Virus genome (UHGV): UHGV-0123226
Reading direction: 5' to 3' (one strand)
Origin: a virus
DNA: 64,000 nt
Shown piece after piece: positions 3,487 through 32,763 of this stretch (within the stretch, counting starts at the first letter, position 1; each line of letters starts with the position of its first letter). Both the position numbers and the translations under genes were made by a program. The notes beneath the pieces were generated by a model. The model was not told where the DNA came from. It saw nothing but the letters and a program-made list of their open reading frames with translations, and ran no database searches.

Positions 3487-3687
3487 ATGGAAAAATCAAA
3501 AAGTTTGATCATATGGCTACCGACTGGTGAAACAATGAAGTTTGAAGATGTTAGGCATGTTGAAACAGTTACAACTGATTTAGAATGGGATGTTTTAAAA
3601 TTTAATTATCTAGGTATTTCAACTGGAGTAAGACGAAATGTAGTATTTGAAATGAGTAAATTAATGGGATGGGCATTGGAAGAATAA
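3487..3687 (+). CDS. hypothetical phage protein
   Basis: 66-aa ORF directly after the preceding gene. Confidence 0.4.
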   Translation: MEKSKSLIIWLPTGETMKFEDVRHVETVTTDLEWDVLKFNYLGISTGVRRNVVFEMSKLMGWALEE

Positions 3688-3705
3688 TAAATGATAGTAT
3701 AAAAA

Positions 3706-3731
3706 AACTACCTAGTTTCCGCTAGGTAGTT
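3706..3731 (+). repeat. stem-loop 1 with TTTCCGC loop (AACTACCTAG-tttccg-CTAGGTAGTT, perfect 10-bp stem)
   Basis: Perfect inverted repeat read directly from the sequence. Confidence 0.7.
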
Positions 3732-3867
3732 CTGTAAGAAATAATATTAAGTTTATTTTTTATAGTATTTTTATACCAAACCCATTATAAAAAATCAAGT
3801 ATAAAAAAGCCAACCGACCACTGGTTGACTAAAACCATATTAGTGATGAATATTCTACCAGATAAAT

Positions 3868-3893
3868 AGCCAGTCGTTTTCCGCCGACTGGCT
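3868..3893 (+). repeat. stem-loop 2 with TTTTCCGC loop (AGCCAGTCG-ttttccgc-CGACTGGCT, 9-bp stem)
   Basis: Perfect inverted repeat; same loop core as stem-loops 1 and 3 with an unrelated stem. Confidence 0.7.
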
Positions 3894-3998
3894 GAGAAGT
3901 GAATAACTATTGGAATATTATTCTTAATATAATTAATATCATAAGTAATGGTTAAATAGCAAAGAATAAGCTTTCATTTGTATATTTGCATAAATTAA

Positions 3999-4030
3999 AG
4001 GAGTTACTCAGTTTCCGCTAAGTAACTCCT
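3999..4030 (+). repeat. stem-loop 3 with TTTCCGC loop (AGGAGTTAC..tttccgc..GTAACTCCT)
   Basis: 9-bp stem plus partial extension; shares the loop core with stem-loops 1 and 2. Confidence 0.65.
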
Positions 4031-4083
4031 AATGATGGTATGTTTCACATAAAATATTATACCATATAGGAGGAGTCAAGGCT

Positions 4084-4575
4084 ATGACGTTGGTACCAGA
4101 AATAGATTACAAAAAAACAAAAGATAAAGTTCGTAGATTATTAAAAAATTGTCGAAGCCTACAACGAATGAGTGGTGTAAAAGTACATTTGCAATCTCCT
4201 ATATTATCTGATATGCCGCGACACCATAGTAACAGAAATAATGCTGAGGAAAGTATGGTTCATTTATTTAGATACACGTCTAAGTTATCAATAGAGGCAG
4301 CTAGACAACGTAGAGAGCAAGTCAGAGCGATAGAGCATACGTTAAAATCGTTGCCTGATGTCTCGAGAGAAATATTATACTATTCATATTGTGTACCGAA
4401 TCCATACAGCATGGCTAAGTTGAGTAGAACAATAAAAGTATATCGTGAAAACGAGTTTGGCCAAGTGGAAGAAATAAGCTATAGCATTAAAAATATTGAA
4501 AAGCTGAAAGACAATGCGTTAATTGAATTTGCGGAAGCCTACCATTACGAAAATTTGATAGTTCAAAAAAATTAG
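4084..4575 (+). CDS. arpU: ArpU-family phage late-gene transcriptional regulator
   Basis: 163 aa. Lies between the early genes and the packaging genes, the usual position of ArpU or RinA. Sequence features typical of ArpU-family proteins (LLKNCRSLQRM, REILYYSYC). Confidence 0.65.
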   Translation: MTLVPEIDYKKTKDKVRRLLKNCRSLQRMSGVKVHLQSPILSDMPRHHSNRNNAEESMVHLFRYTSKLSIEAARQRREQVRAIEHTLKSLPDVSREILYYSYCVPNPYSMAKLSRTIKVYRENEFGQVEEISYSIKNIEKLKDNALIEFAEAYHYENLIVQKN

Positions 4576-4736
4576 GGTTTTTTTAGGGATTATTTAGGGT
4601 TTTTAACTCGAAATCCGTTGTATTATGGTAGTATCAAAAGTCAAAGAAATGGACACAGTACACACTTTCTCGTTTAGTCACCGTTCACTTTGTCTTTCGA
4701 TGGTCACTTGCAGACTTACGTTCTCAATAAAATGAA

Positions 4737-4762: not shown

Positions 4763-5167
4763 CTACAGGTTTGCAAGGGACACAAATAGTTGCTAGGGAT
4801 GCAGTAGTAACTACCTGATTCATACTAGTCGAGGTTAGGTATATTGCTCTATCCCATCATATGACGATAAGAACATTAACCAGATCTCTGCGGCAGCTGC
4901 TTACGCACGAGAGCAATTCCTAAACTCATAGAGTAGCAGCTAGGTACGTTTAGGATAAACTTAATCAATTGTTTTTGCTGGTGTTTGATTGATTGGTCAC
5001 TGTGGTGGAATATAGACCTTACAAGGTGCAAATCCTTGCCAGTGACATAATCATTTTAGCCGTGAAAGTCTGCGAAAGCTACATCCTGAAGGGAAAACAT
5101 TCTGACGAGAGTGTGTAAAGGTTAATTTGATTTATTAGCAATTGCTAGAAGGTCGCTCCTTCTGGTT

Positions 5168-5240
5168 TGGCGTGTAGCATTGTGGTAATGCAACTGATTA
5201 CGTGTGAGATAAGATGCGGGTTCGAATCCTGTCACGCCAA
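5168..5240 (+). ncRNA. tRNA-like element (acceptor stem, D-arm and canonical T-arm GGTTCGAATCC; no anticodon stem foldable by hand)
   Basis: GGCGTG/CACGCC acceptor pairing, T8, D-stem GCAT/ATGC with a GG loop, and a T-arm GCGGG-TTCGAAT-CCTGT. No 5-bp anticodon stem and no encoded CCA. Followed by a GTAGC-ata-GCTAC hairpin and a T-run. Confidence 0.3.
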
Positions 5241-5360
5241 TAGGTAGCATAGCTACTTAAATAAATTAGGAAACGTCAATAGATGTTTCTATCCTTCACG
5301 AGAGGCATCCACTTGCTGGGTGTCTCTTTTTATACATAAAATTACATAGGAGGTGAGGTC

Positions 5361-32653: not shown

Positions 32654-32763
32654 TTGATGATTGCTGTATTGAAACAAAAAGAGCCTACCTCGTCCGCCAA
32701 CGAAGTAAGCTGCTAAACAAAAAATATACAAGTAAATAATAACACGGAAAGTAGGAATTTAAA

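Follow-up and report, generated by a model that had tools for sequence, protein, structure and literature searches.

Cis-antisense RNAs and convergent promoters of temperate phages include lambda OOP/PaQ, P22 sar, P1/P7 c4, and 186 pR/pL. In pCF10 prgQ/Anti-Q, convergent promoters and a small antisense RNA gate read-through, and pIP501 and pT181 use countertranscript attenuation. The present report concerns the gap upstream of the late activator gene arpU in UHGV virus genome UHGV-0123226, analyzed as one stretch of 64,000 nucleotides (the window), in which three tandem minus-strand small RNA (sRNA) genes are predicted. One chromosomal sRNA, Ref1C, is close to this locus. Northern blots detected it, and it was mapped as a primary transcript of the V583 chromosome (Fouquier d'Herouel et al., 2011, PMC3074167); it was also present in all Enterococcus faecalis isolates examined, its function not being reported there (PMC3074167). 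The ArpU protein of phage phiFL2A activates the terS late promoter via three 7-nt repeats just downstream of arpU (Quiles-Puchalt et al., PMC3753634). Early, cI/cro-controlled transcripts carry the activator genes rinA and ltrC at their tail (PMC3753634).

The gap (3688-4083, 396 bp) probably contains three tandem sRNA genes on the minus strand, designated units A, B, and C, which would act as an antisense or convergent brake on read-through into arpU; a probability of about 0.6 is assigned to this reading as a whole. Each unit appears to have a sigma-A extended -10 element and to end in a hairpin followed by a U-rich tract. The promoter pattern TGNTAT[AT]A[AT] occurs 24 times in the 128,000 strand-positions of the window, and three of these occurrences fall within the 400 bp of the spacer, all on the minus strand and each 30-35 nt upstream of a hairpin. 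Since each hairpin has a minus-strand U-tract and is preceded by an extended -10 (TGnTATAAW), the gap can be read as three back-to-back minus-strand units.

Unit A lies next to arpU. Its promoter (4056..4064, minus strand) is the perfect extended -10 TGGTATAAT, positioned 20 nt upstream of the arpU ATG and abutting the ribosome-binding site (RBS); an alternative is TTGACT at 4079-4074, 17 nt from a -10 TATTTT. The predicted RNA of ~60 nt (3989..4049, minus strand) comprises a leader, hairpin H3 (4031 to 3999), and the U-rich tail UUUAAUUUAU, and its fold has a free energy (dG) of -19.4 and a z-score of -4.45. The unit B promoter (3933..3962, minus strand) has the -35 element TTGCTA (3962 to 3957), an 18-nt spacer, and the -10 element TGATATTAA (3941 to 3933). 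It would direct an RNA of ~125 nt (3800..3926, minus strand) composed of a 5' segment with UUAUUCACUUC, H2, a linker, H4, and U6. The unit C promoter (3770..3798, minus strand) has a -35-like TTGATT (3798 to 3793), a 17-nt spacer, and the -10 element TGGTATAAA (3778 to 3770), and the promoter scan also gave TTGGCT-18-TATAAT (3813 to 3784) as an alternative. Its predicted RNA of ~65 nt (3697..3763, minus strand) has an A/U-rich leader, H1 (3733 to 3704), and a U7 tail, with a fold z-score of -4.23, and its 3' end lies ~10 nt from the stop codon (3685-3687) of the upstream plus-strand gene. In the alignment of the window with phage phiFL1B, the -35 and -10 elements are invariant, whereas divergence is seen in the promoter spacers and around the arpU RBS, and the unit promoters therefore look real. 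Searches of unit C against Rfam at permissive thresholds gave weak, generic matches to sRNAs with terminators, nearly all on the minus strand, and the Rfam ctRNA matches at the spacer were insignificant.

Three hairpins of the gap had been described in an earlier note made from the sequence of the window, and they were located again at 3706-3731 (H1), 3868-3893 (H2), and 3999-4030 (H3). Perfect stems of 9-10 bp had been attributed to all three. H1 (10 bp) and H2 (9 bp) do have such stems, but H3 has 13 stem positions with a single mismatch, read as C.A on the plus strand and as U.G on the minus strand. The plus-strand loop is TTTCCG in H1 and H3 and TTTTCCGC in H2, corresponding in RNA to CGGAAA in H1 and H3 and GCGGAAAA in H2. 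Read on the minus strand, H1 and H3 are the terminator hairpins of units C and A, respectively, and H2 forms the central hairpin in the Ref1C-like unit B RNA. H4 (3808-3830, minus strand), missed in the earlier note, belongs to the same system despite its different loop; it consists of 8 bp with one G.U pair (A.C on the plus strand), the loop AGUGGUC, and a following T6 run, and forms the unit B terminator.

The distances from loop to loop in H1/H2/H3 are 162 and 134 bp, in agreement with the 135-160 bp reported before, and all three are inside 330 bp. The loop core said to be common to them was also recovered: TTTCCG occurs seven times on the plus strand of the window, and three of the seven are these hairpin loops. 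The invariant core is 7 nt long, TTTCCGC on the plus strand and GCGGAAA on the minus strand. Because TTTCCG is rare and a random site would form a perfect stem of 9 bp with a chance of ~1e-5, the set of hairpins is far beyond chance. The gap was rightly described as free of open reading frames (ORFs) before the late activator, since no ORF of at least 20 aa was found in 3688-4083 on either strand and the next gene is of the ArpU family. A reading of the spacer as a small peptide or type I toxin gene was rejected for lack of such an ORF.

The earlier note had assumed the plus strand, and had concluded from the absence of a T-run that the hairpins are not simple terminators. This holds for the plus strand only; on the minus strand H1-H4 are all terminator-like. 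In a terminator scan, all four pass on the minus strand and none on the plus strand. The spacer contains four terminator-like sites and the whole scanned stretch six, against 0.9 expected in shuffles. H1 and H4 on the minus strand are canonical intrinsic terminators, with a G+C-containing stem and a run of U6-7. The hairpins differ from other intrinsic terminators of this organism in their invariant hexaloop, which those do not share, and in that H2 is internal to its RNA. The promoters, the U-tails, the orientation of Ref1C, and an asymmetry of G.U and A.C pairs all indicate minus-strand RNAs, and it is quite likely that the hairpins belong to minus-strand sRNA genes.

The pair asymmetry emerged from a covariation set that took every GCGGAAA in ~190 arpU loci, pairing not being demanded. 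GCGGAAA hairpins, at least 146 in number, are all on the strand opposite arpU. Phages and the chromosome together gave 15 distinct hairpin variants, and GCGGAAA is invariant in all of them. Eight of the 10 stem pairs are changed on both sides, and the observed covariation score was reached by none of 500 shuffles, so that the proposed selection on structure plus loop identity is borne out. Read as the minus strand, 94.7% of cells are paired and 14 cells are G.U; read as the plus strand, 87.3% are paired and three are G.U. Because the variants were chosen symmetrically as to strand, this asymmetry is evidence of minus-strand RNA. For example, the H3 orthologue of phiFL1B and SEsuP-1 has three G.U pairs and one compensatory change on the minus strand, and that of phiFL1B, read as the plus strand, has three A.C mismatches. 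In the H1 orthologue AACUAGCUAG/CUAGUUAGUU, a C:G pair has become G.U, paired on the minus strand alone. Folding energies did not discriminate between the strands.

Unit B resembles Ref1C. Rfam family RF02845 (Ref1C) matches 3798-3943 on the minus strand with 55 bits (E-value 1.4e-7); when unit B is aligned to the model, H2 falls on its central hairpin (consensus loop GGCGGAAAAC) and H4 on its terminator (loop AGUGGUC). Both loop types are present in unit B, and units A and C carry only the first. The 5' hairpin of the model (positions 3-30) aligns over the predicted promoter of unit B with non-canonical pairs, and only UUAUUCACUUC is conserved there. In a BLAST comparison with chromosomal Ref1C, unit B is 87% identical over 46 nt of the central hairpin. 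The genuine Ref1C of an E. faecalis chromosomal contig (L009, OR846590.1) scores 149.8 bits and is accompanied in tandem by a paralogue (73% identity over 100 nt) that has a different stem (GAUCAGCUGG) and the same loop. The chromosomal Ref1C promoter, TTGCAG-17-TGTTATAAA, stops 5 nt short of where the Rfam model begins, and the -10 element of its tandem neighbor is TGGTATAAA.

Unit B is thus like Ref1C in strand logic, GGCGGAAAAC loop, AGUGGUC terminator, 5' UUAUUCACUUC, and extended -10. It is unlike Ref1C in score (the gathering score of the family is 90) and 5' domain, and also in its place in a prophage, antisense to the junction of early genes and arpU, between two shorter units that share the loop alone. 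The Ref1C family and cis-antisense control are known kinds of element. The literature searched contained no description of Ref1C family members in prophages or of a loop signature common to them, no tandem sRNA array or conserved antisense unit abutting arpU, and nothing linking Ref1C or any sRNA to arpU. The comparison gives the orphan sRNA Ref1C its first genomic context and paralogues, and prophages are seen to carry copies of a core-genome sRNA family.

The chromosomal Ref1C locus (L009 2829-3240) consists of two tandem minus-strand units and is convergent with a plus-strand match to Rfam BsrC (65.6 bits, gathering score 38). It is flanked by a TagH-like ABC transporter operon and by a gene for a Dph6-like ATP pyrophosphatase.

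The window, which shows 98.6% identity to phage 1_EfsPF36 and partial matches to phiFL1A/B/C, belongs to a phiFL1-type temperate phage of E. faecalis. The loop motif that the earlier note proposed to look for in related prophages was found in part of them. GCGGAAA hairpins, one to three per locus, occur upstream of arpU in phiFL1A/B, phiFL2A, SEsuP-1, and many IMG/VR prophages, and are absent from phiFL3A, phiEf11, IME197, EG-TP1, and E. faecium phages. In a scan of genome contigs with TTTCCGCN{9,39}GAAGTGAATAA, the matches listed included only chance matches in unrelated taxa.

Unit A is more widely kept. In each of the 13 Enterococcus phages examined from GenBank, the minus strand carries a perfect TGNTATAAT that abuts the RBS, 19-24 nt upstream of the start codon of arpU, and a hairpin and U-run follow 20-45 nt beyond it. 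The same element was found in 97/97 and then 72/73 evaluable IMG/VR arpU loci, the lone exception reading TGATATACT. Of 170 evaluable Enterococcus arpU loci, 169 thus have the unit A layout, and at least six different hairpin sequences occur among them. Three of five Streptococcus/Lactobacillaceae phages also have it, namely S. pneumoniae phage IPP24, Lactobacillus phage A2, and Latilactobacillus phage TMW 1.591 P1. The hairpin types differ by lineage and include CGGAAA, AGCCGGA-GCAA-UCUGGCU, AGUCGGA-GCGA-UCCGGCU, GGUCGGA-GCGAU-UCCGACU, the AGUGGUC terminator, and others, with compensatory or wobble changes inside each type. From this conservation, H3 is the window version of an arpU-attached antisense mini-gene. 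Units B and C are accessory.

In some E. faecium-type prophages (L237, L269, and L273), the unit A terminator is replaced by the Ref1C-type GGCAGUC-AGUGGUC-GGCUGUC, which means that the AGUGGUC loop module is also mobile among units and across species.

The anatomy, strand, homology, and conservation of the three units are observed; what they do to arpU is proposed. The arpU gene (4084..4575, plus strand; RBS GGAGGAG at 4070-4076) matches TIGR01637 with 70.2 bits (cutoff 43.1), its product is 33-36% identical to annotated ArpU proteins, and the gene is presumably what the antisense arrangement targets. Opposite this target the units have promoters and terminators of their own, and sense transcription of the spacer is inferred from the work on related activators (PMC3753634). 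The early polycistronic transcript would read through into arpU, as for ltr-type activators, whose reported place at the tail of early transcripts is the reason for the brake reading. An RNA polymerase bound to the unit A promoter would occupy the RBS and start region of arpU and face incoming polymerases, and promoter occlusion or collision could oppose read-through. The antisense RNAs may also pair with the read-through transcript up to ~15-20 nt before the Shine-Dalgarno (SD) sequence. The net effect would be a threshold or delay for ArpU and for late-gene activation. That unit A regulates arpU in cis is a tentative proposal given somewhat less than an even chance.

Like lambda OOP/PaQ, P22 sar, P1/P7 c4, and 186 pR/pL, the units would be short, constitutively promoted antisense transcripts with a terminator of their own, directed against a key regulator at a developmental switch. 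Unlike those, the spacer RNAs overlap neither the arpU coding sequence nor its SD, ending ~15-20 nt upstream; they come in up to three tandem units, have a loop signature in common with a chromosomal sRNA, and are known from sequence. The likeness to pCF10 prgQ/Anti-Q is in the same host, convergent promoters, and small antisense RNA, whereas the spacer differs from pCF10, pIP501, and pT181 in having no plus-strand attenuator terminator between the hairpins and arpU and no sequence homology. In many temperate phages of Gram-positive hosts, the packaging and lysis genes have ArpU/RinA-type activators as their only switch, and the mobilization of islands dependent on those phages is switched in the same way. 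The timing of activator expression is poorly understood beyond the early-operon tail. An antisense mini-gene against the arpU RBS in Enterococcus, Streptococcus, and Lactobacillaceae phages is a testable candidate for that control.

Several points weigh against a brake formed by three sRNA genes. The start sites and 3' ends of units A-C are predictions from sequence, and the tails of H3 (UUUAAUUUAU) and H2 (AUUUAUCU) are U-rich but broken up. The TATAAT box is nearly symmetric, and a plus-strand arpU promoter (TATTAT) could share it. Unit B stays below the Ref1C gathering score, and units A and C score 21.3 and 18.6 bits against the Ref1C model. Read-through is known from rinA and ltrC, and for ArpU phages it is an extrapolation. 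Javan226 and Oenococcus phiS13 have no unit A. Units B and C are missing in many relatives (phiFL3A, phiEf11, IME197, and E. faecium phages) and are thus not essential for arpU control.

The units could also be prophage 'moron' copies of the host Ref1C family, expressed in the lysogen, with the loop and the UUAUUCACUUC leader hitting trans targets in the host or in competing phages and the adjacency to arpU being incidental. This is rather unlikely, although it accounts for much. Each unit has its own promoter and terminator directed against flanking genes, and their presence, absence, and copy number (0-3) differ among close relatives. The Ref1C family also occupies a core chromosomal locus without phage context, chromosomal and phage copies agree in the loop and leader motifs, and an Rfam-validated Ref55 lies on the minus strand elsewhere in the prophage. 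However, across genera the unit A promoter stays 16-24 nt away from the start of arpU (7 nt in A2), and because this distance is fixed even where the hairpin sequence is unrelated, a cis link is indicated for H3 at least. Complements of the leader motif and loop are also not enriched in the window (22 matches vs. 16.6 expected).

An improbable explanation is that the minus-strand -10 only mirrors a plus-strand arpU promoter, that the hairpins only insulate the early genes, and that the RNAs are functionless. Bidirectional promoters can arise from TATAAT symmetry, and TATTAT lies over the same bases on the plus strand in most phages. The genes preceding arpU in phage IPP24 run on the opposite strand, and arpU therefore needs its own promoter in the short spacer. 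However, only the minus strand conserves the TG of the extended -10, and plus-strand -35 regions are poor. Such a by-product would leave unexplained units B and C, with separate promoters far from arpU, as well as the invariant loop and the chromosomal Ref1C homologue.

It is distinctly improbable that the hairpins act on the plus-strand transcript from the early genes to arpU, as the site of an antiterminator, a processing factor, or an RNA-binding protein, e.g., as a 16S mimic. A read-through transcript must contain the hairpins, no plus-strand terminator was found in the scan between the early genes and arpU, and the loop with its G-C closing pair is identical to a hairpin of E. faecalis 16S rRNA. 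With lambda nut/boxB, they share variable stems and a conserved purine-rich loop, the GGAA in CGGAAA fitting GNRA. Against this, mismatches are A.C on the plus strand and G.U on the minus strand (three vs. 14 wobble cells), and the chromosomal family members are mapped as minus-sense RNAs in the Rfam orientation. Pairing is kept better on the antisense strand, which is the wrong one for a site on the early transcript, and the hairpins themselves are succeeded by U-tracts. An antiterminator gene was not evident, no boxA or N-like protein was identified, and nothing came out in support of a nut-like antiterminator site, the earlier note having considered an RNA element bound by an antiterminator.

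The ssoA CS-6 motif is TAGCGT in a terminal loop, accompanied by RSB, and the EFAR palindromic elements of enterococci are described as modular. A DNA element of such a kind (cruciform, single-strand origin, primosome site, or dispersed palindromic repeat) is extremely improbable: the palindromes are perfect, H1 and H3 contain a TAGCGG loosely like CS-6, and modules (the loop-1 hairpin, the AGCACUUU hairpin, and the AGUGGUC terminator) are shuffled between phages in a way recalling EFAR, yet the G.U-type asymmetry, promoters, and U-tails indicate RNA, H2 has CGGCGG and no TAGCG (RSB was not searched), the window is a double-stranded DNA siphovirus with terminase and portal genes, and the family is of low copy, the Ref1C locus being the sole one with either loop in a 188-kb E. 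faecalis chromosome sample and none occurring elsewhere in the window. Nothing supports the cruciform, single-strand origin, or primosome site proposed before. A high-copy repeat was accordingly rejected within that 188 kb of chromosome and the 64-kb window, a sample and not a whole genome. EFAR elements are mentioned in PMC3733652.

Returning to minus-strand sRNA genes with an antisense role, cis-antisense pairing does not explain the invariance of GCGGAAA, because a mutation in the loop alters both strands together. The invariance points to a trans partner, protein or RNA, or to a special loop fold, and this would apply to the whole Ref1C-type family including the chromosome. Most likely the conserved loop contacts a hypothetical trans partner common to the family. 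Among 177 terminator-like hairpins in 252 kb, CGGAAA was found in family members only, and it was therefore rejected as a general E. faecalis terminator loop. Mimicry of an ArpU box was also considered, since the phiFL2A box TTGGCGG resembles the hairpin YTRGCGG; it fails because the same loops occur with two ArpU types and different boxes (TTAGGG in the window), without co-variation. The ANTAR, CsrA, and YUNR loop motifs do not fit the spacer loop.

A lead on the partner came from E. faecalis 16S rRNA (contig L304), which scores 1628 bits to the small-subunit (SSU) rRNA model. Its positions 868-885 form the hairpin GGAGGG-UUUCCG-CCCUUC, which we take to be helix 26, with the same hexaloop and closing pair as the plus-strand reading of H1 and H3; its loop is therefore exactly complementary to the sRNA loop. 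The 16S sequence GACCACU (L304 1037-1043, in the V6/helix 33 region) is complementary to the loop AGUGGUC. Neither the UUUCCG hairpin nor the GACCACU motif was found elsewhere in a 7-kb rRNA-containing contig (L305), which presumably includes the 23S gene. Both 16S motifs occur together in 0.5% of dinucleotide shuffles of 16S, a comparison made post hoc and one among many possible. The Ref1C-type RNAs might on this ground be a ribosome-directed family, the loop 5'-GCGGAAAC-3' being complementary in register to the 16S hexaloop and closing pair, a notion that must be called a long shot. If true, loop-loop kissing would dock the RNAs on 30S or pre-16S, and the phage would carry up to three copies beside its late switch.

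Another Rfam family, Ref55 (RF02838, Enterococcus sRNA 55), matches the window at 32675-32728 on the minus strand with 77.6 bits (gathering score 43). This copy has an extended -10, TGTTATTAT, beginning at 32744, and its terminator loop UUGGCGGA has GCGGA in common with the loop of the spacer hairpins.

Annotation is probably affected in related phages. The phiFL1A gp33 (L137 2105-2296, minus strand; equal to phiFL2A gp32 and phiFL1B gp33) is a 63-aa ORF with no SD and without a Pfam or NCBIfam match. It starts right at a hairpin with the GCGGAAAA loop and crosses the Ref1C-type terminator GTCAGCCATTGGTCGGCTGGC and its T-run. The ORF is probably a spurious call over an sRNA gene of ~190 nt with the promoter TGATATAAT, and phiFL1A gp33 and phiFL2A gp32 are therefore flagged as probable mis-annotations over sRNA genes. 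Several records labeled as phage (among OR846587-OR846704, PQ520109, KT319615, and others) are mislabeled bacterial chromosomal contigs, 16S rRNA genes included, and served in this analysis as a source of E. faecalis sequence.

Directly after the arpU stop codon, at 4573-4606, the window has three TTAGGG repeats with 11-nt periodicity. Their position is that of the three TTGGCGG repeats of phiFL2A (L134 2917-2948), which are ArpU-binding (PMC3753634). The TTAGGG repeats are probably the cognate boxes of the divergent (~35% identical) ArpU of the window. Downstream of these boxes, a block of ~90 nt at 4635-4720 (ATCAAAAGTCAAAGAAATGGACAC...GATGGTCACTTGCAGACTTACGT) is conserved with phiFL2A, though the ArpU proteins and boxes differ; it may represent a structured RNA, or else the late promoter or leader. 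A tRNA-Arg (anticodon ACG; 5167-5241, plus strand) follows arpU and precedes the genes for the HNH endonuclease and terminase, and related phages have a tRNA at the same place (tRNA-Asn in SEsuP-1).

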